Below, piece by piece: positions 1,346 through 21,432 of a stretch of 21,780 bases of DNA. Both the position numbers and the translations under genes were made by a program. Location of the stretch: the IMG/VR virus record IMGVR_UViG_3300032053_000031. The stretch is one strand, 5' to 3'. Source of the stretch: a virus (Duplodnaviria; Heunggongvirae; Uroviricota; Caudoviricetes). The notes under the pieces are model-generated. The model saw only the letters and a list, made by a program, of their open reading frames with translations, made no database searches and was not told the DNA's origin. Each line of letters opens with the position of its first letter. Within the stretch, counting starts at the first letter, position 1.

Positions 1346-1996
1346 ATGGCAAAAACTATAACAGTTAAAACCGTTAAACAGTTATTTGATGATCTTCGAT
1401 ATCATGTTGATATTGAATATAATACGGATACGTCTCACTGTACATGCCAGGATATATGTCGTTGTGGACGGGTAGTTGATATTAAGGTCAAGGGCTTTTA
1501 TGGGGACATCTCAGAGCTATTTTTTGGTTTATGCAAAGATGAAATCGAAAAATATTGTGTCGACAGAATTGTTACTCATGGCGTAGATATTAATAACATT
1601 CAAGTTAGTACTACATGGGGCTACTACGGGGAAGAATTAGGTACTGTTAAATTAAATAATTCTCCTGTGGCTGAACTTGAGAGTGCCTTAAGTACTAAGA
1701 GTCCCTTGAAAAAGATATTTCAGACTCTAACATATGAGTATGGCTATCTCCTTCCGGATCTTGAGAAGATGACGAAGGTTGAAGTGATAGAAATTCCTTC
1801 TGACCTAATTAATATTGGAAACACTGAGCACTACCGCAGATTAGATAAACAAGCTATAGAACGTTATAAGAACAATAAAAATAAGTTACCAAAAGCTGTT
1901 GTATGTGCTGTAGGTGAAGGATATAGACTGATAGATGGTTATCATCGAATAGCTGCACAAGGGAAAGGTAAAATCAAAGTAATTGTTTTATCATAG
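1346..1996 (+). CDS. Hypothetical protein with C-terminal ParB/sulfiredoxin-like motif and N-terminal Cys cluster
   Basis: C-terminal YRLIDGYHRIAA matches the ParB-N DGxHR motif; HCTCQDICRC near the N-terminus; TAG stop. Confidence 0.6.
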   Translation: MAKTITVKTVKQLFDDLRYHVDIEYNTDTSHCTCQDICRCGRVVDIKVKGFYGDISELFFGLCKDEIEKYCVDRIVTHGVDINNIQVSTTWGYYGEELGTVKLNNSPVAELESALSTKSPLKKIFQTLTYEYGYLLPDLEKMTKVEVIEIPSDLINIGNTEHYRRLDKQAIERYKNNKNKLPKAVVCAVGEGYRLIDGYHRIAAQGKGKIKVIVLS

Positions 1997-2003
1997 GAGA
2001 TAA

Positions 2004-2177
2004 ATGAGCTTAATAAAGAATTCGGCAATCAAGAAAGTAATTAAGGAAGCTGGTCTAAGAATTAGTAAGGATTCGTTTCCGCATTTCGAAAGGAAGTTAA
2101 ACATTGCTATTCAGAATGCTATTCAGATGGCAAAGAATGATCGGCGGCAAACTATCCGCCCGGAAGATATTTCCTAA
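2004..2177 (+). CDS. Prokaryotic histone-fold protein, 57 aa (short-alpha2, truncated-alpha3, Bd0055-like); not in the ORF track
   Basis: Hand translation gives MSLIKNSAIKKVIKEAGLRISKDSFPHFERKLNIAIQNAIQMAKNDRRQTIRPEDIS*. AGGAGA RBS at 1995-2000; RxTxxxxD histone L2/alpha3 motif; fills the gap between two genes. Confidence 0.85.
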   Translation: MSLIKNSAIKKVIKEAGLRISKDSFPHFERKLNIAIQNAIQMAKNDRRQTIRPEDIS

Positions 2178-2190
2178 GTAGAGGAACCGC

Positions 2191-2490
2191 ATGAGCTCCG
2201 ACAAAGATAAGTCCGTTATTCCTGAGGGACAGTATTGCTACGACGAGTTTGGGGTGTGTCCCTACTGGTCACTCGATCCCACGCACCCTGAACAAGAAAA
2301 TGGTCATTGTGCTTATCTAGAACAAGGCGACTGGGAAACTGGTGGTCTATTATGGGACCAATGTAAAGAGTGTGGAATTAACGAAGATGGACCCGGAGTT
2401 GAAGAGGAGTTTGAGGAAGTCACGGATTTTGTCCAGAAGCATAGAAATGGCAAATGGAGTTCCAATGACGAGGAAGAAACTGACGAGTAA
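2191..2490 (+). CDS. Cys-rich phage hypothetical protein, 99 aa
   Basis: IPEGQYCY...CPYW...GHCAYL...LLWDQCKECG pattern; GAGGA RBS. Confidence 0.65.
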   Translation: MSSDKDKSVIPEGQYCYDEFGVCPYWSLDPTHPEQENGHCAYLEQGDWETGGLLWDQCKECGINEDGPGVEEEFEEVTDFVQKHRNGKWSSNDEEETDE

Positions 2491-3097
2491 ACAGATCATA
2501 GATATTGCAATAGACGCAGGTATCATACCTGAGGCACAAGTTGGCTTAAAGAAAATGCTCACGACTCCAGTGTCTGTAATAAACGTTCCGCATATTATAC
2601 CTGGACGAATGGGTAGACCTGATCAGGTTAGTTATGGTCCTCAACATTACACTCCTACTGAAAAGGTACCTGTAGCATCCTTTAGCAAGTATATCTCTTC
2701 CTATAAAAAGAAAATGATTAGACGTATGGAAGGCTTTCTTCGGGAAGCGAAGAGAATGGATCATAAACTGAAGGAAATAATATTAAAAATGGACGAGCTT
2801 GGCTATAGAATAGATAGTATTGACATATATGACAAAGATAAGGAACAGATATTTAATAACAGAAAGCGGCCTAAGGCTGTGTCGTTTGAAGTCAAAGCGA
2901 CTAGAGGAGAAATGAAATTGTCCGGTAGCTTACGCATCAAGCCCGCAACAATTCACTTCTCTTTAGGTAGAGTCGACAAGTATTATAGGGGGTGTGTACT
3001 CTCTATGAAATACTTCAGGACTCTGCGAGTAAAGGATAACTATCTTGCAGCTTTAGTTAATAGTTCAGAACAGTTTAATTATGGAATGCACTTCTAG
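2465..3097 (+). CDS. Hypothetical protein, about 210 aa
   Basis: Start re-assigned to ATG2465 (GGAG upstream); the track start at 2342 overlaps the previous gene by about 150 nt. TAG stop. Confidence 0.7.
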   Translation: MTRKKLTSKQIIDIAIDAGIIPEAQVGLKKMLTTPVSVINVPHIIPGRMGRPDQVSYGPQHYTPTEKVPVASFSKYISSYKKKMIRRMEGFLREAKRMDHKLKEIILKMDELGYRIDSIDIYDKDKEQIFNNRKRPKAVSFEVKATRGEMKLSGSLRIKPATIHFSLGRVDKYYRGCVLSMKYFRTLRVKDNYLAALVNSSEQFNYGMHF

Positions 3098-4167: not shown

Positions 4168-4650
4168 ATGAATACTCTCAAATATAATAATGTTGACTAT
4201 AGGGTAGTTGTTGTGGAAGATCATCTGGACAAGATAATGCAGACGATCGGTGAGATTGTCTCATCTTATGTTAAAGGAGAAGCGGTAGTAGCCGACTTTA
4301 GTAATCTTAGATCCCGTGGGGCAAAAACATCCCATGCGGGTATCTCTTCCGGCGCAGCTTCATTCGCGGAAGCAATGGATGGTGCAATCGTTTCAGTAAT
4401 GCATGAAACGGATATCAAAAGATATCCGCCTATAGCTATACTGGCAGAAAGCCATCCCGACTTCACAGAATTTAAAAGCTCCGATCCCCAAATTGTCCTT
4501 TACGCCAGTCTATCGGATACTGGTCTAAAGATACTTGAAAAGGGAAAGAAGAACATAACGCCACGGTGGGAACTCAAAACCAAAGAGGAGGTGAGACAGA
4601 GTCTGGTGGACGTCGAGAAGCAGGCGAGTCCTTTCTTCAGGAGAGCTTAA
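4168..4650 (+). CDS. Stand-alone fragment of ribonucleotide reductase alpha subunit (specificity-site/dimer-interface region), no catalytic Cys, 160 aa
   Basis: VVEDHLDKIM...DFSNLRSRG...GISSGAASF...D...R...L...HPDFTEF follows the NrdJ/NrdA consensus V-D-S-x-e-x-I...dfS-x-lRp-x-G...G-x-sSG-x-vSF...HPDi-x-eF. The protein has no cysteine at all. GGAG RBS. Confidence 0.75.
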   Translation: MNTLKYNNVDYRVVVVEDHLDKIMQTIGEIVSSYVKGEAVVADFSNLRSRGAKTSHAGISSGAASFAEAMDGAIVSVMHETDIKRYPPIAILAESHPDFTEFKSSDPQIVLYASLSDTGLKILEKGKKNITPRWELKTKEEVRQSLVDVEKQASPFFRRA

Positions 4651-8667: not shown

Positions 8668-8738
8668 GACTCCGTAGCTTAATGGCAAAGCAACTATCTC
8701 TAAAATAGTGCATGAGAGTTCAATTCTCTCCGGAGTCA
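8668..8738 (+). tRNA. tRNA with anticodon CTA (amber suppressor, reads UAG); CCA not encoded
   Basis: Acceptor GACTCCG/CGGAGTC, T8-A9, D-stem GCTT/AAGC with loop AATGGCA, anticodon stem ACTAT/ATAGT with loop CT-CTA-AA (anticodon 8700-8702), 4-nt variable loop GCAT, T-stem GAGAG/CTCTC with loop TTCAATT, discriminator A8738. All stems are perfect Watson-Crick. Confidence 0.95.
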
Positions 8739-11309
8739 TTACTTTTTCGACGGTTCCACATAAAAGGTCTTGTCGCAGAAAGGATCAAGACACTGCCAGC
8801 GCTGCATTGTTCCAATGTTACCTTTATATCCAGCGGGGCCACCACACTTAGGACACTTAGGCTTTTCTACTTCTTTCTTTGGTTCTTCCTTCTTAAAAAG
8901 ATCTAATATTCCTGCAGTTAATCCTAAATCAGACAGACAGCGGGCGCAAAGCCATTTATCTGTTTTCTCTCCCTTAGTAATAGCTGGGTAGTGCTTACAA
9001 CGTTCGCACCTTTGGGGTTCTTGAATAAGTCCCTTCTCAACCAGATTTTCTAAGTCAGGCTTTCTTCCGCGGTACATACTCGGAAGCTCTTTTGGCTTTG
9101 CTTCCTCAGTCTCTTCCTCTATTTCTTCCTTACTGATAGGCGGCTTCGCTTTGACTGCGGGCTTCGATGGTTCTATAAGAGATTTAGCTCCCTCGTAGGT
9201 AGAAGCCTGTCGAGCTCTCTCAAGTAGATCGTGAATCAGAGTATATGCATGTCTGAGATTGACTCCACTCTGTTCCGAAACTGTTTCAGCATTGGGAGCT
9301 TCCAAACCTTTTATTTGAGTTCTAGCTTTATAAAATTCAATTAGTTTTGCTGTAGGTCCGCCTTGACCATGAGCTAAAGCGTGCCACTGTCCGGGTTGGA
9401 AGTTCTTTAGAAGACCCCAAAGCTCTTCTGCTGGATAGGTGTACTGTCTCTTTGGTTCTTCTATCTTCTCCGAAGGAGCGCGACCCCGCCTACGCTTTTC
9501 TACTAATGTAGTCGCGTCGATGTCGACATCCGACTCCATAAGATTTCCGGCCCAAGTAACTTGGAACCTAACTTTATGAATGTCCATATCTACCTGAATT
9601 ACTTCAACTACCTGATCTTTAAAGGGACCATCTAGTATCTTTATTGTATCACCCTTCTCATAAGGTGTTTTAAATCCTGGAGGTAACTCTCCCTTCTCCG
9701 TTAGATATCTATTAAGAAATCGTTCAATTACGCGCTGTCTAATATCCTGCCTGATGTTTTCTGGCCAAGGCTCTCTAGGAGGTAACTGCTCACCTGTCTC
9801 TCCACTGCGACGTTTCCCTGGAGTACCAAACCACATATAAAAATAGTATTGTTCCCTTGCAAGCTGTTTCTTCTTTGCTTCAGAAGGTTGACGTCTAACC
9901 TCTTCGCGAAAGTTTTCTAACTCAGCTTCGGTTAAAGGTTCTGGAGATGTATTATCTACCTTGGGACGAATACCTTGAAACATATCTTCGACTAACCAAC
10001 CAATGGTCGGCTCATATATACCCAAAGGTTGTCCAGGAACAGCCGCATCCTTTAAAAGAGGCTTTACTCCCCAATCAGTAAATACTGGGAAAGGATAGTT
10101 AAACTTTGCAGCAAGTATACCTACCAATTCACTAGCCCACTGTGCAAAGGGAGTATTCGTAAATTTAGCCACTTCCGAGAAAGAGGGACCAGCCCACTGC
10201 ATACCAGGATCAATATCCGCTTCCTTACGTATCTTCTTAGGAAGAGGCTGCTGCGCAAGCCACCATCGGCGTAAGCCAGTAGGGATAGGTCTATCTTCCG
10301 GCTGATAAGATGTATTGTCTATGAAAGTAATGTTGTCCCCTTCTTTTCTATAATAGAACTTTAATGTAGTATATCTAGGTACCTCATTAATAATCTCTTG
10401 GATATTTTTAGGAAGTTCCTTAAAGGGAACAACTATCTTATTATAATCGCCGGGAGTGACAGTCCACTTATCCAAAGGAATATCTACTTTTAAATAAAAC
10501 CATATCTGCTCTTCCCGGGTTTTTGGTCTAGGACCTTTCTTTTCTTTCTGTTTATAACCAGGAATACCTATCGTGGCTGCACTATCTGTAAGATATTTAG
10601 CGATAGATATATCGCCAGCATCTCCTCCCTTTGCATCAAAACTAAATTTATCAATGGTAAGCCCTTCCTCTTTAAGAGCTGCACCTGCAGCTATTGCTAC
10701 TCTTTCTGCTAATTTTGTAAGGATCTGTCCAGCAGGAGCGGGTTGAAGAGGTATATCCGCTGCTGCATATGCTTCTGTAATTTGTTTTACAAAAGCTATT
10801 GGACCTCCTAACGAAAGAACAACTGATACCTTATCCTCGTCAGGATCAATGCGATCCACTAAAGCTGTCCATGAATTTTTGAGAGAAGAGTTTTGTATAA
10901 AAATACTTCCATTAATATTACCCATCCATGGTTTCGTCGTCTCTCCTTTTCCTGGAATGGTTCTTTTTCCCGTACCCGAGACATTTACTAATGTATCCCA
11001 AGTTTTTACAAACTCGTCTGGAGTGGGAGGAAGCTCTTTAGGAAGCTCCTGCTTCTTTGCGACAGGTATTTCTTTAGGTTCTTCACCAATAGGCGTTGTA
11101 GGTATTTGTACTGGTTCCTCTTCTTTTGTTTTTTCTTCTTTTAATTCATCCAGGAAAAACTTAAGCAAAGATGAAGCGTTGTCCGCTGCCTTAATTTCCT
11201 CGAGTAATTTTTTTCTTTCAGCCTTCTGTTCCTCAATAGGTAACGTCTTAATTCTAGCTATAGCAGTATCTATCTCAACAGCATCTATCTTTTTTCCAAA
11301 ACGTTCCAT
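8739..11309 (-). CDS. 856-aa multidomain protein: NusG-CTD-like KOW domain, putative HTH, two C-terminal Zn ribbons
   Basis: YEKGDTIKILDGPFKDQVVEVIQVD (KOW, about 9495-9662); PNAETVSEQSGVNLRHAYTLI (HTH-like); CERC...CARC and CPKCGG...QRWQC...C; AGGA RBS. Confidence 0.85.
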   Translation of the reverse strand: MERFGKKIDAVEIDTAIARIKTLPIEEQKAERKKLLEEIKAADNASSLLKFFLDELKEEKTKEEEPVQIPTTPIGEEPKEIPVAKKQELPKELPPTPDEFVKTWDTLVNVSGTGKRTIPGKGETTKPWMGNINGSIFIQNSSLKNSWTALVDRIDPDEDKVSVVLSLGGPIAFVKQITEAYAAADIPLQPAPAGQILTKLAERVAIAAGAALKEEGLTIDKFSFDAKGGDAGDISIAKYLTDSAATIGIPGYKQKEKKGPRPKTREEQIWFYLKVDIPLDKWTVTPGDYNKIVVPFKELPKNIQEIINEVPRYTTLKFYYRKEGDNITFIDNTSYQPEDRPIPTGLRRWWLAQQPLPKKIRKEADIDPGMQWAGPSFSEVAKFTNTPFAQWASELVGILAAKFNYPFPVFTDWGVKPLLKDAAVPGQPLGIYEPTIGWLVEDMFQGIRPKVDNTSPEPLTEAELENFREEVRRQPSEAKKKQLAREQYYFYMWFGTPGKRRSGETGEQLPPREPWPENIRQDIRQRVIERFLNRYLTEKGELPPGFKTPYEKGDTIKILDGPFKDQVVEVIQVDMDIHKVRFQVTWAGNLMESDVDIDATTLVEKRRRGRAPSEKIEEPKRQYTYPAEELWGLLKNFQPGQWHALAHGQGGPTAKLIEFYKARTQIKGLEAPNAETVSEQSGVNLRHAYTLIHDLLERARQASTYEGAKSLIEPSKPAVKAKPPISKEEIEEETEEAKPKELPSMYRGRKPDLENLVEKGLIQEPQRCERCKHYPAITKGEKTDKWLCARCLSDLGLTAGILDLFKKEEPKKEVEKPKCPKCGGPAGYKGNIGTMQRWQCLDPFCDKTFYVEPSKK

Positions 11310-11313
11310 GGTT

Positions 11314-14300
11314 TTATCCTGAAATTTTAAGTGAAATAGTTCTATTACCTAGATCAACATCTTCTAATTTTACAGTTTTAAACTGTTCTAATGCCCTTGG
11401 AATATTCGTTTCCACGAAAGAAAGAATGCGAGCTAATGCTTGCTCTTCCTGAATATCTGGAGGTAAATCTCCTTTCTCCCATGTACACTGAATTTTTAGA
11501 TCATTCCCAATAAATTCAAACGTAATAGATATATCTTGGGTCATTTGGGAATACTTTTGGGCAGGCATTGCGTTAAAAAATGTAGGAGACTGTTTGCCGC
11601 CCGCATAAGGTAAAGGTGAACCGTTGTCTCCCTCTCCGCCGACAACGTTATCCTTAGGCCATTCTTCTAAACCAACCTTTCGTTTATCTTTATGAAGGCG
11701 CTTTCTCTTCCAGTCCTCTATGACCTGCTGGAGCTTTTCTCTACTTCGATTCCACTCTTCCTGCTGATGGCGCGCCTTTTCTGGAACCTTAGGAAAATTC
11801 TGAGTATCTTCTATGTAGTCATGATGAGGAAAAACCTGCACTCCATAATCTTCCCTTTCAGATAATTCATGAGTCATGAGCTGGTCAGTCTCCCATGAGT
11901 CATAAGTAGCAGCGGTCTTACCTAGTTTTTCTGGACCTCTTAGTTCCCAAGGTAGAGGTTCGCGTCTTTCGTATTTTAGTTTAATCTCTTTTTCCTTTTC
12001 CTTTTCATATTCCTCAGGAGTCTTAATAGTAGAAACTCCCTTGATTTCATTAATACTTTTCTGAAGTTGTTCTCTGGTATGCCATTTTCTCTTAGCTTCG
12101 TCGCTTGCTAATTTCGTATATAGTTCTGCGTTAAGTTCCTTAATATCATTTTCTAATGCTCTTAAATGACTTTTCAACTCTTTTATTTCTTCATCGTTCT
12201 TATAATAACCCGCAGGACCATGTTTCTTCAAATCTTCGGGTTTAAAGATCCATTTAGGTGTTTTCTCTAAAGTGTGTTCCGTTTTTTCTTTGTTTAGTCG
12301 TAGCTCTTCAAAAGCGTCTTTATATCCCAAATGTTCAACGAAAGCCTCATAATCAGAATCAAACTCTTCCTTTCGGCGTTCAATAACTGATATCAACTCA
12401 TTAAGTAATTTCTTTGCTTCGTTAATATGTTCAGATGAATCAGGATGCTTAGCGACTTCGGGAGCATCCAAAAGTTTATTATTAAACTTATCGATTTCCT
12501 TTTCTAGACCAAAGAGAGCTCCGGAAGACGCCATGAATAGAAATGCTTCGTTCTCTTCAAGATTTTCTAAATCTTTTTCCACCCTCTTTATTTCAGCGGG
12601 ATCTCTATTAGGGGCACTCTCTAACCTTTCTAGATGCTTTAAAAGCCTCTCTTTCATACCAGAAATATCTCTACCGGATATAGTCATTGCCTTTAAAGAA
12701 GTTATCTTACTCTTTAAGAAAACAGCTATATCGGAAAGATGCCGCTGCCATGCAATATGTCTATCGGGAACTTCAATATCTTTTAAAGCGTCCAACTCTC
12801 TCAGTTCACTAGGAGCTTCTAATTTAACAAAGATATCCTTAGCAACTTCGTCTTTTTTAATCTTAGATCCGGGTATATCCTTGATAAGATCATGAAATTC
12901 TTTATCAAAGGATTTTTTCAAAAATTCAAGTTCTAATATTACAAAATCTAATTGGCGTGGAGAATAGATATTACTATAAGTTTCTGGACCTAATTCCTTT
13001 AGTTGACTTAATTTATCGAGAGCTTCTTTTCCTTCACTGAACGATGGAAACTCCTTATTAAACTCTTGGACAAAACGACTGGTAAATATATTCCCGTTTA
13101 TTCTCCACCACTCCTGATTATTTTTAAAGTTAAGATCTTGTGCTACCTTGTTCCATATTAATTCAACACCCCATTTATCGTGAGCAGATGACTCATCTAC
13201 ATATGCTCTATACAATAAGGAACGTCCATAGGGGTCGAAAGCTTTTGCCGCCAAGGTAATAAGTGAATCTATATTTTTCTTTTTCTCGGCAGGATCGAGG
13301 TGTTCATATCCCTTAGTGGGAACTTTTCTGCGTGCTAGCTCCACCTCTATGAGAGAACGAAGTTCTGAGGCGATATCTCCTTTTAAGAAGTTATTAAGAG
13401 TATCGTGCTGTCCATAGTAGGCAAGCCATTGTATAGCTGCTTTCTGAGCATCTACATCTTTGGAATGTAGCACCTTAACTAGAAAATCAACATCTTTACT
13501 CTTTCCCAGGAAATGCGTAATCACTCCCTTAATTTCAGGAACAGAAGTCTCCTGATATTTCTTATAGAGAAGGTCGCTCTGCCCTAGCTCCGCTAGATAT
13601 TTAATTGCTTCCGCCTGAACAGTGATGTTAGGATTGCTTAAAGCTTTAGTTAACCCTTCTACATTACCTAAGTCAGCATAAGCTTTAACAACTGCCAGAC
13701 GCGGGTCAAATACCTTTCCTAGCTCCTTAATTTGAGGGAAAGGTACATTTGTGGGTTTTTGATATTTTTCTGGGAAGAACCTTCCTACATTTTCATAAAT
13801 AGCATTTATTACTTCTAGATTGTCACTATGAACCGCACTTTCGAGGGCTTGTTGAATTACATTTAAGTCTATACGCTCCCCTATTTTTTGAGAAAAGTTC
13901 TCAGCTGCAGATAATATTTTACGTATTTGAACTGCTTTGTCCTGTAGTTCCGCCAGCTTAGATTCATCCTTCGTCGTCTTTATTTCTTCCTCTACCTTGT
14001 TTAACTGATCCTTTGCTTCATTCCCTTCTTGTTTTACCTTCTCGACGTTTTCAAAGTACCAATTAACTGCGTCTAGTTGCTCATGAACGTTACCGTCCAT
14101 CATGTCATAGGCCGTCTTTAAATCGGCAACAGCTTTAACGTCTAAAGAAGAAAGAGGTTTTATTTGAACAAGCTTTTCTTTTTCCCCTTCCTCTTTATCC
14201 GACAGAGGTTTTCTAATAATAACCTTCCACAGATCATTTAAACGTTCGCGCCACTTTCCTATGGGCCTACCTACAAATTGTCGAACATCTTTTAATAATA

Positions 14301-17300
14301 ATTCGTCATCATTAGGGATGTGAGCAGGAAGAGCAGGGGCTAATCCCCATGCAGTACCCGATTCACTGGGCCACGTAGTTGGAGGTTGACGTGCCTGCTT
14401 GAACAACTGCTCGCCTGCTAAAGCTTCTAACTCTTCGGTAGAAACCGGTGGATCACCAGGATCAGGACCCTCATCCGACATCCACTTACTCCATGCTTCA
14501 AACCACTTCTTTGCCGCTTCTATCTTTGAATAACCTTCAAACTCAGGACTTAAAGAAGGTTGATCCATTCCTGAAGGGAGTCTCTTTCGTTCTAATGTCT
14601 CAAACATTCCAATCCATCTGTCATGCTTAAGATACTCTTTTACCATTCGTACAAACGAAAGACCTAGTTTATCGGACGCGCGACGATCTTCATATTCCTT
14701 TTTCTTTTTATCAGTTAGACCAGGACCTAAAGGAGAAAGGAGATCGTCAATATCCTTAATTTGATCATTTAAATAATTGTCTAACTCATCAGCTTTAATG
14801 CTATCTACACCGAAAGTATCAATAAATCCATCAAGAATTTCAACCTTCTTCGAAATAGGAAGGCCTCTCATTGAAATAGCATATCCAAAAAGTGCATCTA
14901 TGGATGAAGGAATTGGTCCAATCTTTTCAGGCTCTCCTAGTTTATATCCAACGGCGGAGTTTAATATATTGGTCTCTTCGCTTAATTTTATATCGGAAGG
15001 ACCGATATTTTCACCCTTCTTCTGTGAGTTTGCAAAATCTTCATCAATCATCTCTAACATTTGAAGGTGTGACTTATCTGGTCCCTTCCCTCTTGCGGCA
15101 CGCACTTTATCCCAAAACTCTTTTCTGGCCGGGGGAATAAGTCGAGTTATCTGACGGTAAATATTCATTCGAATATTCGGATTCTTCTCTTCACGAAGTT
15201 TTTCAAAGAATTCCTCAGGAATCATTCCTAATGAGCCTGTTCCTCCTTCCTCTGTTCCTCTTCCATATCCTAAAATTATAAAGTTCTTAATATAATCTTC
15301 GTAGGCTGCATTACGAACGACATCGTCATTATCATTTAAGCCGTAGCCGCCCTTACTCTTATCCTTCTCATCGATCCATCCAGTTAGAATTTTGGGAGGT
15401 TCGTCTTCTTTGGAAGTATGCTCACTAATGTATTTCATTATTTCCATCTTATCTTCGACACCGGGACTAATTCCCTTTTCTCCCTCGACACCTCTTGGGG
15501 TGCTCTGATATATAGAATACAATGATTCAGCGTTTGAGGGATAACCTACACTCTCTACTGCCGTGATAATAGTCTTTCTTAAATCCTTTACTCTAGATGA
15601 GAGCGTTTCATCCGGGCGAATATAATTACCAATTGATTTATAATAATCCCGAAGAAGCTCTTGAGCATTACTTTGTCCACTCTTTGCAAAGCTCCCGAGA
15701 TAATTCACTCCGAGTAGCTTTCCTTCGTAGCTTCCCTTCTCAATTAAAAGTTTTGCTTCAGCTACTGACGTGGGCTTTTTAGCTCTACTGGAATATGGAG
15801 TTATTTTTTCTCGAAGACCTGGATCATCTGTAGGGCCTGTTTCAAAGATCCTTTCGTATTTTTTACCATATACCTTTTCCAGGACTGGTTTATTTTTATC
15901 TAGCCATGCGAGTGCTCTGTCGAATTCTGAAAGTTGCTCATATTCACAAAGTAATAGCCAAGCAATTCTAGCGAATTCCTTAATAGGAACGACATTGTAT
16001 AGACCTAGTATGGCTGTTTCAGCTTCATCCCATTGTTTGGGATTGCCAGTTTGAGCTGCTCGACTGATAGCATTTTTAGCTTTATGAACTTCCATATCAC
16101 CATCAACAGCTTCTATCTCTAGTGAAGCGATAGGATGCTTCTTCTCATCTTTAGGTTTTAACTTAAGCTTCTTTAAAATTTCGAGTAGTCGGGTGGGATC
16201 TTTAATATCCTCCGGCTTGGTATAAGTTCTGTCAGCATCCCAGGGACACTCGGGATATAGATTTTCAAGAGGAGCTCCCGGTTGTTCTGGACGTATGTCC
16301 CAATGTACGCCAGTAAAGGAAGGCATGAAAGCAGCTTCTACCCCTAATTGCTTCCTTAGACTCTTTTGCATTCGTTTAATCTGGTCGTTCATAATGCCGC
16401 CTCGAGCGACACCATTGAGCAGATTAAGGACGCGAACTCTTTTATTACGAGAAGGATTTTCACCTAGGTACTTACGAAGTCGGCTAAGACTATCACTTAT
16501 ATTGTCTTTAGTCCAAGACAAATCTTCCCGCAGTTTCTGCCAGGTCTCATCTTTAACAATTTGTTGAATCTCTTTGAGCGAAGGCATCTTCGCTTTTTTA
16601 ATCAGAACCTTAAATTTATCAGGATCGTTAGCATCAACGTCTTTATTGGAACAAACTTTCATGTGCTGAGTCATTAATACTTGACCAGTGATATAACTTT
16701 CTGGAGTATCAATTTTTATCTCTGCAACATCTTGAGTACACCAAGGACAGACAACCGTAGCTTCTATTCTTGAAGGATCAATGTCAATATCAATAGCAAT
16801 AGGTCCTTTGCCAATGCCAACCCAGATAGCGTCTACATATCTTCTTACATTGCCTGCTACTTTATTCAAAGAGAAATCCATTTCTACATCAATTGCGGGA
16901 ATACTCCCATCAGCAACATTTTGAACATACTGCTGAAGGCTCATTAATTCGGATTCTTCCTGAGGTACGTCTTCTTCCGCAATCTTTTTAATTTCGGGCT
17001 TTCTTAATTCTTCGCGAATTTCCATCAGTATCTTACCGAGATGGTTCTCACCCTTTCCGCCGCTGATACCCCAAAACTTGTCACCCCAATTATTTCCTTC
17101 TTCGAGAGGTTGATCACCAGTAGACAATAGAAGATTAGCAAGATTAGGATTCTTTTTAAACTTTTGTGTAACCAGATCCTTCATTATATCAATTTTAATA
17201 GATTCCCAGTCTGGACGGAGATTAACTTTCTGACCAAGTCTCTTTGCCTTACCAGGTGTCGAAGCCTTAAGAATAGCTTCTCTTTCAGCCGGATTAATAG

Positions 17301-17787
17301 TTTTAGCTGCCTGGTAGGCGTGTTCTACCGTAGGATAATCAACTCCTTCGTAGGTAACTACAGCTGGTTCAAAGTTAGAGAAGTCTCTATATTCACCAGA
17401 GAATTCTTTAACAGCTTCCGTATATAACTCTTCTCTTGCTAAGAAGCGGGGTTTAATCTTTTTCTTTTTCTTCTTAGCTTCTACCTTACCTGGTAGTGTA
17501 GCTAGGGTAATCTTATATTGGTTAAGTTTGAAGTTAAAACCCAGCTGGCCAGACTCGGCGTCTCGTTTGAGAGGAAGAATCTGACCGCCGAGAATAATCT
17601 TTTGTAGAAGTTCAGTCTCTTCGGGGCTACTTAGAGAGGGGACACTTGCAGCAAGGATACTCCGAAACTTCTCCTCATTTGCAAGGAGACCATTGATATC
17701 TAGGGTACTTATAAGATGATTCTGAACATTGTGCGGAAAGTCTTCTATATTAAAAATTATATACTTGTCTTTTAAATTGTATTCCAT
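11314..17787 (-). CDS. Giant 2157-aa protein with N-terminal NADAR domain, C2HC Zn finger, HEAT-like repeats and coiled coils
   Basis: Uninterrupted ORF. NADAR at aa about 126-262; CPWC...HxxxC at about 16650-16752; HEAT-like helical repeats at about 13327-13707. Start overlaps the protease stop (TAATG). Confidence 0.9.
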   Translation of the reverse strand: MEYNLKDKYIIFNIEDFPHNVQNHLISTLDINGLLANEEKFRSILAASVPSLSSPEETELLQKIILGGQILPLKRDAESGQLGFNFKLNQYKITLATLPGKVEAKKKKKKIKPRFLAREELYTEAVKEFSGEYRDFSNFEPAVVTYEGVDYPTVEHAYQAAKTINPAEREAILKASTPGKAKRLGQKVNLRPDWESIKIDIMKDLVTQKFKKNPNLANLLLSTGDQPLEEGNNWGDKFWGISGGKGENHLGKILMEIREELRKPEIKKIAEEDVPQEESELMSLQQYVQNVADGSIPAIDVEMDFSLNKVAGNVRRYVDAIWVGIGKGPIAIDIDIDPSRIEATVVCPWCTQDVAEIKIDTPESYITGQVLMTQHMKVCSNKDVDANDPDKFKVLIKKAKMPSLKEIQQIVKDETWQKLREDLSWTKDNISDSLSRLRKYLGENPSRNKRVRVLNLLNGVARGGIMNDQIKRMQKSLRKQLGVEAAFMPSFTGVHWDIRPEQPGAPLENLYPECPWDADRTYTKPEDIKDPTRLLEILKKLKLKPKDEKKHPIASLEIEAVDGDMEVHKAKNAISRAAQTGNPKQWDEAETAILGLYNVVPIKEFARIAWLLLCEYEQLSEFDRALAWLDKNKPVLEKVYGKKYERIFETGPTDDPGLREKITPYSSRAKKPTSVAEAKLLIEKGSYEGKLLGVNYLGSFAKSGQSNAQELLRDYYKSIGNYIRPDETLSSRVKDLRKTIITAVESVGYPSNAESLYSIYQSTPRGVEGEKGISPGVEDKMEIMKYISEHTSKEDEPPKILTGWIDEKDKSKGGYGLNDNDDVVRNAAYEDYIKNFIILGYGRGTEEGGTGSLGMIPEEFFEKLREEKNPNIRMNIYRQITRLIPPARKEFWDKVRAARGKGPDKSHLQMLEMIDEDFANSQKKGENIGPSDIKLSEETNILNSAVGYKLGEPEKIGPIPSSIDALFGYAISMRGLPISKKVEILDGFIDTFGVDSIKADELDNYLNDQIKDIDDLLSPLGPGLTDKKKKEYEDRRASDKLGLSFVRMVKEYLKHDRWIGMFETLERKRLPSGMDQPSLSPEFEGYSKIEAAKKWFEAWSKWMSDEGPDPGDPPVSTEELEALAGEQLFKQARQPPTTWPSESGTAWGLAPALPAHIPNDDELLLKDVRQFVGRPIGKWRERLNDLWKVIIRKPLSDKEEGEKEKLVQIKPLSSLDVKAVADLKTAYDMMDGNVHEQLDAVNWYFENVEKVKQEGNEAKDQLNKVEEEIKTTKDESKLAELQDKAVQIRKILSAAENFSQKIGERIDLNVIQQALESAVHSDNLEVINAIYENVGRFFPEKYQKPTNVPFPQIKELGKVFDPRLAVVKAYADLGNVEGLTKALSNPNITVQAEAIKYLAELGQSDLLYKKYQETSVPEIKGVITHFLGKSKDVDFLVKVLHSKDVDAQKAAIQWLAYYGQHDTLNNFLKGDIASELRSLIEVELARRKVPTKGYEHLDPAEKKKNIDSLITLAAKAFDPYGRSLLYRAYVDESSAHDKWGVELIWNKVAQDLNFKNNQEWWRINGNIFTSRFVQEFNKEFPSFSEGKEALDKLSQLKELGPETYSNIYSPRQLDFVILELEFLKKSFDKEFHDLIKDIPGSKIKKDEVAKDIFVKLEAPSELRELDALKDIEVPDRHIAWQRHLSDIAVFLKSKITSLKAMTISGRDISGMKERLLKHLERLESAPNRDPAEIKRVEKDLENLEENEAFLFMASSGALFGLEKEIDKFNNKLLDAPEVAKHPDSSEHINEAKKLLNELISVIERRKEEFDSDYEAFVEHLGYKDAFEELRLNKEKTEHTLEKTPKWIFKPEDLKKHGPAGYYKNDEEIKELKSHLRALENDIKELNAELYTKLASDEAKRKWHTREQLQKSINEIKGVSTIKTPEEYEKEKEKEIKLKYERREPLPWELRGPEKLGKTAATYDSWETDQLMTHELSEREDYGVQVFPHHDYIEDTQNFPKVPEKARHQQEEWNRSREKLQQVIEDWKRKRLHKDKRKVGLEEWPKDNVVGGEGDNGSPLPYAGGKQSPTFFNAMPAQKYSQMTQDISITFEFIGNDLKIQCTWEKGDLPPDIQEEQALARILSFVETNIPRALEQFKTVKLEDVDLGNRTISLKISG
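17002..17412 (-). other. NADAR (YbiA-like) domain within the giant protein
   Basis: FSNF...YPTVEHAYQAAK...AKRLG...RPDW...KF...LLSTG...E...WGDKFWG...GENHLGKILMEIR is the full NADAR motif set. Confidence 0.9.
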
Positions 17788-19911: not shown

Positions 19912-21432
19912 TTACGCGTACGGTACCGCTTCAATATAATTATCGGGTAGTGGGCCGACGTAAACAGCGTGTAGATCAGCGTCTTTGCCGAACTGATCAC
20001 CTGTCACATCAATTACTTTATCTTCAACTTCAACCCACCAGTGAGCAAGCATTCTTCCTTTAATATCACTTACATAACCAAAAATAGGAGTTGCGTCTAA
20101 ATGAAAATTGTTTTTAAGTACGTTAGCTAAATACTTTGATGTTTTTTCACAGAAGCCTCGGGGACTTACTTTATGATCTTCTACAAACTGTCCTCTAATC
20201 TGTTCTGCGATAGCCTTAATCTCATCCCAATCTATCTTATTAGCAGTCACTACTATAGTGGTATCATACATAGACGCAGCTGATTTATAAAATGGATTAA
20301 AAGGATTAACGACTGATTGTCCCTCTTGACCCTTCGGAAGAAAATAACTATTATGAACAAAAATTCCAGAAGCAAGAGCAAAATTGTGGTAACTTTCTAC
20401 TCCCACAATATCGTAGACGTCTGCGTAACCATCATTTTCTATTGAGATAACTTTGTGATGAATTGTCCACCCCTTAATGTCGCCACATTTATAAATCGCC
20501 GCAACTCTATGAGTTAATTTTTCCTTTCCTTCGCCAGGATTTCTAACACGTTCATACCCGTGATTGTCTAAGCGACGATATAGAGGCATTAGAGAACTAT
20601 TGATAGTTAAATTGTCTGCTCTACAGTAGGTTCCATCTCGAAGTAAAATTAAATGTTCTGGAGTACATCTAAACGATTCGGCGTTATCCAACACTATTTT
20701 CAATATAGGTACTGCTTTCTTAGTTAAAATAACTTCTTTTGCTAATCCACAACGTACTTCTTTTTTATCTTCATTCATGGAATAAACAAAAAAGTCTTTT
20801 TTCTTCTGTAGATATAATTCCTCTAAAGTAGGGTAGGTACCATCTAGTAGAGGTATTTTAGTGTCTCCGGTTAAACAACCAGGATATTCCCGTTTAAAAT
20901 TATTGTCGCCTATGTCAGATGGCCCCCACCAATCAACGTCATTCATTCGACGTTTATATTGAGGTGGCGCTACTGGACGACCCTTAGCTAGCGGAGCGTC
21001 TAATTCTTCTAAAGGAACATTCTCATATACGTTCTTAGCTTCTAAATCGCCAACGTTCACAGTTTTATCGCGATTTACAGATAGAATAACTCCCTCTACT
21101 TCACTTCGCCAAGTAGTGGGTTTAATCTTAACATGGTCGCCTTTAGTGAAAGCTTCTTTCGACATTGGCTCATAAAGTAGTCCAGGCTTATTAGAACTGA
21201 AGCCGTGCGACTTTTCTGAACCAGACCATTGCTTCCCTCTTGTGGAACTCTGGGGCCCTACTGTAAGATTCTTTTCTTTTAAAATGTTCTGTAGCACAGT
21301 GCAGAGTACTTCTGGATCTATATTAAAACCTAGACTCAAACCAGTAAGATCGGAGAAGGTATCAAAAGGAATTTCTCCTTCGATATTCTTTAATCGTTCT
21401 TCTATAAGCTGTCTAATATCTTGTTCTTTCAT
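19912..21432 (-). CDS. Intein-containing 506-aa protein: SH3-like barrel, intein, C-terminal transglutaminase/papain-like domain
   Basis: FTKGDHVKI...G.I..V (SH3/KOW-like); Hint motifs; GFCEKTS...HWWVE...IDVTGDQF (Cys-His-Asp). Confidence 0.85.
   Translation of the reverse strand: MKEQDIRQLIEERLKNIEGEIPFDTFSDLTGLSLGFNIDPEVLCTVLQNILKEKNLTVGPQSSTRGKQWSGSEKSHGFSSNKPGLLYEPMSKEAFTKGDHVKIKPTTWRSEVEGVILSVNRDKTVNVGDLEAKNVYENVPLEELDAPLAKGRPVAPPQYKRRMNDVDWWGPSDIGDNNFKREYPGCLTGDTKIPLLDGTYPTLEELYLQKKKDFFVYSMNEDKKEVRCGLAKEVILTKKAVPILKIVLDNAESFRCTPEHLILLRDGTYCRADNLTINSSLMPLYRRLDNHGYERVRNPGEGKEKLTHRVAAIYKCGDIKGWTIHHKVISIENDGYADVYDIVGVESYHNFALASGIFVHNSYFLPKGQEGQSVVNPFNPFYKSAASMYDTTIVVTANKIDWDEIKAIAEQIRGQFVEDHKVSPRGFCEKTSKYLANVLKNNFHLDATPIFGYVSDIKGRMLAHWWVEVEDKVIDVTGDQFGKDADLHAVYVGPLPDNYIEAVPYA
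20350..20877 (-). mobile_element. Mini-intein, 176 aa (C186-N361, +1 Ser), with a truncated HNH-endonuclease remnant
   Basis: Block A CLTGDTKI, block B FRCTPEHLIL, block F DVYDI, block G HNFALASGIFVHN|S; internal GYERV...THRV...GWTIHH. Confidence 0.9.

Follow-up and report, generated by a model that had tools for sequence, protein, structure and literature searches.

The IMG/VR virus record IMGVR_UViG_3300032053_000031 (Caudoviricetes) was analysed over a stretch of 21,780 nucleotides, called the window throughout, which contains at positions 2004..2177 of the + strand a gene for a protein of 57 residues, P0001. Sequence comparison and structure prediction together support P0001 as a minimal protein with a histone fold, of the alpha3-truncated type known from bacteria. 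Histones were, to our knowledge, long thought to be absent from bacteria and their viruses. P0001 probably forms homodimers that bind DNA irrespective of its sequence and bend it, in the manner of HBb, the histone of Bdellovibrio bacteriovorus.

The bacterial alpha3 histones HBb (2023-24; PMC10627809, PMC11317129) and HLp (2025; 10.1101/2025.05.08.652872) bind DNA in unusual ways, and the alpha3 types of phages were characterised by prediction only in both surveys of 2024 (PMC11390915; 10.1101/2024.12.06.627149). The clade to which P0001 belongs offers a very small test object, with 57 strongly conserved residues and no tails or extra domains, and is suited to a first biochemical and structural study of how phages use histones.

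The gene and its orthologues

The coding sequence (2004..2177, + strand) starts with an ATG at 2004 and ends with a TAA at 2175-2177. A Shine-Dalgarno sequence, AGGAG (1995..1999, + strand), is read directly 4 nt 5' of the ATG and is overlapped by the TAG stop (1994-1996) of the upstream open reading frame (ORF), while the next gene begins 14 bases past the histone stop codon. Because of this overlap and of the short downstream gap, the gene is tightly packed in a co-directional block. In a scan for sigma-70 promoters and terminators, promoter-like sites were no more frequent than in shuffled sequence, which leaves no ground for assigning the gene a promoter of its own. GC content is 0.38 in the ORF and 0.39 in the window.

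P0001 has a pI of 10.4 and a net charge of about +5.6, and presents the pattern I9-K-K-V-I-K-E-A-G17-x-R19-I-S21 ... A43-K-x-x-x-R48-x-T50-I-x-x-E54-D55. An initial annotation, made from the DNA letters, had reported a 57-residue ORF with a strong ribosome-binding site at this position and had quoted this residue pattern; the ORF, the AGGAG and the pattern were all found in the sequence. It had also described the ORF as unannotated; the public gene calls on the 117,657-bp contig do include it, with no Pfam family assigned. Several orthologues are labelled 'histone H3/H4' by the JGI pipeline.

With phmmer, run exhaustively against 1.8 billion cluster representatives, only six relatives were retrieved, all with the same motif, and a profile search of a 5.8-billion-protein collection yielded a set of 57-residue proteins that are 51-63% identical to P0001. 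The distinct clusters of 57-residue orthologues number at least 14. Wherever the DNA of an orthologue was read, the length was the same and AGGAG stood equally far before the start codon. The dN/dS ratio ranges from 0.04 to 0.21 in the orthologue pairs with measurable dS, synonymous sites being saturated in most pairs and only the unsaturated ones being counted. The histone ORF is a genuine gene under purifying selection, and the conservation of the orthologues together with the dN/dS values rules out a spurious ORF.

Six loci of the clade come from JGI metagenomes. Among 10 orthologues examined, 8 are strongly basic, with a pI of about 10. The most divergent members, P0004 (L003, 772-939; 41% identity) and a copy in L013 (1673-1840; 30% identity), are found in different gene contexts, the neighbours of P0004 being DnaJ, DUF5131 and a 5'-3' exonuclease, and their pI values are lower (8.2 and 9.1, respectively). 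As these two members are much less basic, the histone family may not be functionally uniform.

Other searches gave no further member. A word-indexed protein search with the single P0001 sequence returned only P0001 itself, and the clade profile found no relative either in IMG/VR or in 185,579 species genomes. The only tblastn match of P0001 to 50,697 phage records was a chance one (E 0.5), and a megablast of the whole window against GenBank phages gave no match. No isolate, prophage or host link for the clade was found in these searches.

Histone homology and predicted fold

A phmmer search of the PDB sequences with P0001 alone placed HLp of Leptospira perolatii (9QT0) on top (E 7.5e-4), followed by HBb (Bd0055), histone H4 and the archaeal histones HMfA and HMfB. 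The clade profile, built from 16 sequences of the phage clade and including no cellular histone, gave E-values of 1.6e-11 for HLp, 3e-7 for the archaeal histone HTkC (9F2C), 5e-7 for HBb, 2e-4 for HMfA, 3e-4 for HMfB and 5e-4 for H4, and histones made up all 60 matches listed. As judged from these matches and from the models described below, the histone-fold homology of P0001 is well supported.

The AlphaFold2 model obtained with an 86-row alignment has a pLDDT of 90.8, with helices at residues 6-15, 22-45 and 53-56. The single-sequence model (pLDDT 80) led to weak Foldseek rows only, and the fold comparisons rest on the alignment-based model. With Foldseek, HLp was matched with TM values of 0.89/0.91 and an rmsd of 1.0 A, and HBb with a TM of 0.87 (0.80-0.81 when normalised by target). 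The superposition on HLp covers 55-56 residues, and the rmsd to HBb is 1.2-1.5 A. VIA-align gave Z values of 8.7 for HLp (rmsd 1.0, 56 residues aligned), 8.3 for HTkC, 8.0-8.1 for HBb and about 6 for HMfA/B and H3/H4. Release dates of the HBb, HLp and HTkC structures fall in 2023-2025. The best 50 matches of Foldseek and of VIA-align are all histone-fold chains. The initial annotation had made its reading depend on a histone-fold match, and such matches were found with the profile, Foldseek and VIA-align. The same fold is present among the viral models of BFVD, in A0A516M1G1 (TM 0.91, rmsd 0.8 A), in A0A516LIY4 (TM 0.92) and in 64-residue proteins of uncultured Caudovirales.

In the model, helix alpha1 (residues 6-15; 2019..2048, + strand) carries I9 and I13, which align with the dimer-core residues V16 and I20 of HLp. 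It is followed by loop L1 (residues 16-21; 2049..2066, + strand), delimited from the model and the alignment, in which G17 and R19 are invariant and S21 is near-invariant. Helix alpha2 (residues 22-45, i.e. 24 residues; 2067..2138, + strand) contributes F28, L32, A35 and I40 to the antiparallel crossing of the predicted dimer. Loop L2 (residues 46-52; 2139..2159, + strand), also placed from model and alignment, comprises D46, the clamp residue R48, Q49 and T50, and the truncated helix alpha3 (residues 53-56; 2160..2171, + strand) makes one turn before the chain ends at residue 57. The hydrophobic dimer core is kept (I9, I13, F28, L32, A35, I40 and I56).

The alignments define the motif R48-x-T50-x-x-x-x-D55 (2145..2168, + strand), which unites the RD clamp and the L2 threonine, and R48, T50 and D55 are invariant both in the phage clade and in the 86-sequence alignment. 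The position of Q49 is occupied by K in 13 of the 16 clade members; the L2 consensus of the clade is R-K-T-V-Q-P-S-D and the P0001 copy reads R-Q-T-I-R-P-E-D. R19 aligns with the L1 arginine of HMfA ('eRVS'), where HLp has M and HBb has N.

Alpha3 histones, as described by Schwab et al. 2024 (PMC11390915), have an alpha3 of 3-4 residues and an alpha2 shortened by 4-5 residues relative to nucleosomal histones. The predicted alpha3 of P0001 covers residues 53-56, its alpha2 is 4 residues shorter, and the profile relates it to HBb, HLp and HTkC. In the HMMER alignment HMfA has a 4-residue insertion in alpha2 and one extra L1 residue compared with the phage clade. This insertion and the 24-residue alpha2 of the model agree with the earlier estimate of an alpha2 about 4 residues shorter than in HMf, and the short helix at 53-56, one residue before the end of the protein, bears out the truncated alpha3 and the lack of an extra C-terminal domain that had been proposed with it.

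The nearest solved relative is HLp (PDB 9QT0-9QT2; 10.1101/2025.05.08.652872), a bacterial alpha3 histone of the face-to-face (FtF) type, with which P0001 aligns without gaps over 53 residues (about 33% identity). Both proteins have a short alpha2, a one-turn alpha3, the RD clamp and the dimer-core hydrophobics. They differ in that K15, T27 and G29 of HLp correspond to A8, I20 and K22 in P0001 and in that HLp has about seven more N-terminal residues; moreover, HLp is a chromosomal, abundant and probably essential bacterial protein, whereas the P0001 gene lies in a phage-like genome. HBb (PDB 8FVX, 8CMP, 9EZZ, 9F0E; PMC10627809, PMC11317129), a 'bacterial dimer' alpha3 histone, presents the same truncated architecture, the RD clamp, the extra aspartate, no FtF tetramer residues and an RKT identical to the clade consensus. 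However, its identity to P0001 is about 28%, its profile scores are weaker than those of HLp, its L1 is one residue longer, and its K10, N22, K52 and R57 correspond to A8, R19, Q49 and E54. The likeness to Bd0055 pointed out in the initial annotation is thus a fair comparison for the truncated architecture and the clamp, but the nearest solved relative is HLp.

The likeness to HMfA and HMfB (PDB 1B67, 1A7W, 5T5K) consists of the profile match (2e-4 to 3e-4), the L1 arginine in 'R-V/I-S', the R-x-T...D clamp and the handshake topology, while the alpha2 of P0001 is four residues shorter and its alpha3 has one turn. As a consequence of this shortening, the nucleosomal four-helix-bundle tetramer interface is missing, which makes hypernucleosome-type wrapping unlikely. 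In the phage clade, an L1 arginine of archaeal type occurs alongside traits of HBb, namely D46 and the absence of the tetramer residues.

Histone folds of phages have been described in two surveys. Schwab et al. 2024 (PMC11390915) reported 'phage histones' with a C-terminal tetramerisation helix and without RxTxxxD. From IMG/VR and PhageScope, Liu et al. 2024 (10.1101/2024.12.06.627149) collected 289 non-redundant Caudoviricetes histone-fold proteins, with characterisation limited to prediction, and sorted them into seven clusters, of which six are named (VKH, VTTH, VHHH, VFFH, BBVH and MFVH) and one is undefined. These catalogued types resemble the present clade as metagenome-only alpha3-type folds with predicted dimers or tetramers and predicted DNA bending or bridging. 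P0001 is without the C-terminal tetramerisation helix of VTTH and of the phage histones of Schwab et al., the C-terminal helix of BBVH, the KOW domain of VKH and the C-terminal loop described for the catalogued types; its 5 residues before alpha1 may or may not amount to a VFFH-type tail. RxTxxxxD, missing from the phage histones of Schwab et al., is kept in P0001, and the end of the chain at residue 57 together with the invariant R48, T50 and D55 rules out membership of that group or of VTTH.

Since no close relative was found in IMG/VR or in GenBank phages, the clade is probably not in either catalogue, the comparison with these being one of published descriptions. The clade is arguably a distinct, minimal and untailed variant of the Caudoviricetes alpha3 histone-fold proteins already described. 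Alone it leaves the current picture unchanged; alpha3 histone folds of this kind from tailed phages were already catalogued in 2024 by Schwab et al. (PMC11390915) and Liu et al. (10.1101/2024.12.06.627149), and the novelty implied in the initial annotation was overstated.

The DUF1931 pseudodimer (PF09123), which contains two folds per chain and is without DNA-binding residues, was considered and rejected: P0001 consists of one fold, and PF09123 gave no match at E up to 10. The name 'DUF1931' attached to 9QT0, which is HLp, was assigned automatically by the depositor. Among the metagenome proteins retrieved with phmmer, P0005, P0006 and P0007 (119-150 residues) are natural tandem fusions of two alpha3-type folds, each half of which keeps RKT...D, unlike DUF1931 pseudodimers. 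The N-terminus of P0006 is a hydrophobic, signal-peptide-like segment.

Predicted dimer and DNA-facing residues

The two-copy prediction of P0001 reached a score of 0.87, the best of 3 controls giving 0.00. This mark was reached by 20 of 30 proteins solved as same-chain pairs and by 1 of 23 solved as single chains, counts that are approximate because the alignment used was one of our own. The three dimer runs agree in at least 98% of the contacts, with a partner pLDDT of at least 93. The contacts join L1 (18-21) with L2 (50-52), alpha2 residue 32 with residue 32, and alpha1 residues 9/13 with alpha2 residues 36/40, and they correspond to the contacts of the HLp dimer (10.1101/2025.05.08.652872). 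P0001 is thus predicted to form a head-to-tail handshake homodimer, the arrangement that the initial annotation had proposed to look for. The dimers of HBb and HLp are solved, so this outcome may reflect likeness to them and not independent proof. The tandem two-fold fusions P0005-P0007 fit a dimer as the working unit.

Residue roles taken from the HLp and HBb studies (10.1101/2025.05.08.652872 and PMC11317129) were transferred to P0001 through ungapped HMMER alignments. At the DNA-contact positions, S7 (S14 in HLp, S9 in HBb), K10 (K17, K12) and K14 or R14 (K21, K16) are kept, as are S21 (S24 in HBb) and T50 (T57 in HLp, T53 in HBb). K15 of HLp, or K10 of HBb, is replaced by A8, so that two of the three alpha1 lysines of HBb have a counterpart (K10 and K14), and at the L2 loop the clade has RKT and P0001 has RQT. 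Basic residues specific to the clade are the invariant K5 and R19 and also K22, which is K in 15 of 16 members. The RD clamp, R55/D62 in HLp and R51/D58 in HBb, is R48/D55 in P0001.

On this basis we infer that P0001 binds and bends DNA, and does so as a dimer. Two chains would pair head-to-tail into the handshake homodimer, which would grip the DNA backbone non-specifically through the N-terminal end of alpha1 (S7, K10, K14), with a second contact provided by the paired L1-L2 loops (R19, S21, K22, T50). For HBb, a DNA bend of about 84 degrees over 36 bp has been described (PMC11317129), and the P0001 dimer would bend DNA in the same manner. The protein would then be a phage-encoded nucleoid-associated protein, presumably made together with the products of the surrounding replication, recombination and nucleotide-metabolism genes. 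It may act on phage or on host DNA, candidate roles being to organise the replicating phage DNA, to assist packaging, to shield the DNA from nucleases or to act on the host nucleoid. The coating or protection of phage DNA and the interference with a host histone that the initial annotation had put forward are likewise candidate roles, between which the present results do not discriminate.

Several points weigh against this reading. The fold and the dimer are themselves predictions. PF00808 (CBFD_NFYB_HMF), the sole histone-type Pfam family matched by P0001, scores 16.0 bits (E 0.015), below the gathering cut-off of 21.4 bits, so that P0001 is not filed under the Pfam entry as curated; 12 of the 16 clade members match this family at E up to 1, the lowest value being 0.001. 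K52 and R57 of HBb are replaced by Q49 and E54, and the clade member P0004 is nearly neutral (pI 8.2). HLp, which is a tetramer, comes ahead of HBb, a dimer, in the sequence as well as in the structure comparisons, so that an oligomer beyond the dimer is possible. Furthermore, capsid, portal, terminase and tail genes were not recognised in the window or in the gene lists up to 10 kb on either side.

The ranking of HLp bears on the oligomeric state. P0001 could be an FtF-type histone like HLp and HTkC. Two of its dimers would then join, roughly 60 bp of DNA would be wrapped around the resulting tetramer, and the phage genome would be compacted more than by a bending dimer. HLp is the best match by sequence (7.5e-4 and 1.6e-11) and by structure (Z 8.7, 1.0 A), the archaeal FtF histone HTkC comes second in the clade-profile search and in the structural ranking, and R48 and P53 match R55 and P60 of HLp. 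However, R49 and N53, which build the face-to-face tetramer of HLp and are conserved in predicted tetrameric FtF histones (10.1101/2025.05.08.652872), align with M42, a variable position in the clade (A, T, M or S), and with D46, near-invariant as D in 15 of 16 members. These tetramerisation residues (R48/N52 in the family logo) are therefore not kept in P0001, and the loss of both is a trait of dimer-type histones (Schwab et al., PMC11390915). D46 matches D49 of HBb, which adds a salt bridge to the clamp arginine (PMC11317129). The absence of the FtF tetramer residues favours an HBb-like dimer over the FtF tetramer, and we regard the tetramer as unlikely.

Compared with HBb, the loss of two basic DNA-contacting residues at Q49 and E54 would also suit a protein-contact module with no action on DNA by itself, and so would the near neutrality of P0004. 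Such a module would pair with a host histone or nucleoid protein, or would serve as an adaptor for a phage partner, for example the conserved protein of 180-250 residues encoded two genes downstream, which is found near the histone in all relatives examined. Histone folds are often reused as protein-protein modules, e.g. in TAFs and NF-Y. DUF1931 and transmembrane histones are without DNA-binding residues (Schwab et al., PMC11390915). Nevertheless, the strongly basic pI in 8 of 10 orthologues, the conservation of S7, K10, K/R14, R19, S21, K22 and T50 at canonical DNA-facing positions and the confident prediction of a homodimer all speak for contact with DNA, and there is no sign of host histones in the tree or in the 185,579 species genomes; a role restricted to protein contacts seems quite improbable to us.

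A bolder version of the DNA-binding reading would make P0001 a factor of counter-defence or host takeover. Early in infection, dimers would sheath the incoming or replicating phage genome against restriction enzymes and CRISPR nucleases, or would condense and silence the host nucleoid. The sheath would resemble the end-on 'nucleohistone filament' first seen in crystals of Bd0055. We hold either activity to be distinctly unlikely; if true, it would be the first functional 'phage chromatin' made from a true histone fold.

Genomic setting and neighbouring genes

The 117,657-bp contig is a metagenome assembly and, on the basis of its gene content, a probable large phage genome. A nucleotidyltransferase of phrog_388 (2.7e-63) has relatives in 1986 phage records, including the T4-like NrdC.11. 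Other phage-typical content comprises the phrog_1017 NADAR domain, HNH, DUF559, Endonuclease VII, a DenV-like gene and an intein, and further ThyX, DNA ligase, Thg1 and a tRNA.

The gene order around the histone is shared among relatives. An RlaP/NrdC.11-type nucleotidyltransferase is followed by a few variable small ORFs, the histone, a variable ORF of ~100 residues, the conserved protein of 180-250 residues, a stand-alone ribonucleotide-reductase (RNR) fragment and a RuvB-like ATPase. This order is present, whole or in part, on contigs of 10.5, 21.5, 31.6, 117.7 and 133.3 kb (L001, L004, L006 and two ENA contigs), and ThyX is also within the block in L001 and L004. Across a group of probable phages of ~120-130 kb, the histone gene of the clade keeps one position within the replication/repair block. 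The central proposal of the initial annotation, a minimal viral histone in a gene cluster, stands in this form, as a histone fold in a phage-like replication/repair block.

As neither the window nor the flanking 10 kb on each side yielded a capsid, portal or terminase gene, and as IMG/VR and the GenBank phages yielded no relative, the contig might also be a cellular fragment or another mobile element, and P0001 an ordinary bacterial alpha3 histone of an unsampled lineage; RuvB- and RNR-like genes occur in cells too. A phage is favoured instead by the close packing of small ORFs in one direction, accompanied by HNH, Endonuclease VII, DenV-like, DUF559 and intein elements, and by the T4 NrdC.11-type nucleotidyltransferase, ThyX, the DNA ligase and Thg1. 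In addition, no ribosomal or housekeeping gene was found in the stretches examined of the 117-133 kb contigs, and the 185,579 species genomes contain no relative. A non-phage origin of the contig is in our view highly improbable.

In a phylogenetic tree, a single long branch with an SH-aLRT of 100 separates the phage clade from the other 103 alpha3 histone rows, which are metagenome proteins, a few named proteins of Myxococcota and Bdellovibrionota and the HBb, HLp and HTkC references. The deeper forks of this tree, which is based on 69 columns, are not resolved, including the sister group of the phage clade. The category of bacterial dimer histones, the HBb type, is itself delimited by sequence clustering and confined to bacteria. 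A recent capture from a histone-bearing host has no support from the tree or from the GC content (0.38 against 0.39). The suggestion in the initial annotation of a histone-bearing host lineage likewise found no support, given the separate long branch, the equal GC content of ORF and window and the lack of a relative in the 185,579 species genomes.

The gene at 2342-3097 (+ strand; the public call starts near 2447), two genes downstream of the histone, encodes a protein with no Pfam or PHROG match. Counterparts with 32-37% identity (E 1e-21 to 1e-25) are present in L004, L006, L008 and L010. It is the only conserved close neighbour of the histone and a possible functional partner. The upstream ORF (1346-1996, + strand) is not conserved beside the histone in the relatives. 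Its C-terminal ~40 residues look by eye like the 'DGxHR' of ParB/sulfiredoxin, a reading for which Pfam and PDB sequence searches gave no support. The stand-alone RNR fragment (4168-4650, + strand) has 160 residues, corresponds to the start of the ribonucleotide-reductase barrel (PF02867, E 1.2e-5), and persists on all the related contigs as a small gene of its own, directly 5' of RuvB.

Three large proteins are encoded on the - strand. In a protein of 856 residues (8739-11309), a KOW motif was weakly matched at the centre (PF00467, E 4e-4, sub-threshold); this protein has no match in phages or IMG/VR, and its NusG/KOW-like structural neighbours are weak (TM by query at most 0.12). A protein of 506 residues (19912-21432) contains an intein (PF14890, 2e-15, residues 193-361); its extein has no family match, and its structural neighbours match the intein only. 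No Pfam families were found for the large proteins along the related contigs. The third protein, of 2157 residues (11314-17787), has an N-terminal NADAR domain (PF08719, 1.2e-28; phrog_1017, 2.1e-45) and HEAT-like repeats, and the syntenic giant protein (2700 residues) of the related 133-kb contig has a DNA_pol_B_thumb match instead. A single tRNA was detected by ARAGORN at 8668-8738 (+ strand), with the anticodon CTA, which reads UAG, and is labelled tRNA-Pyl.

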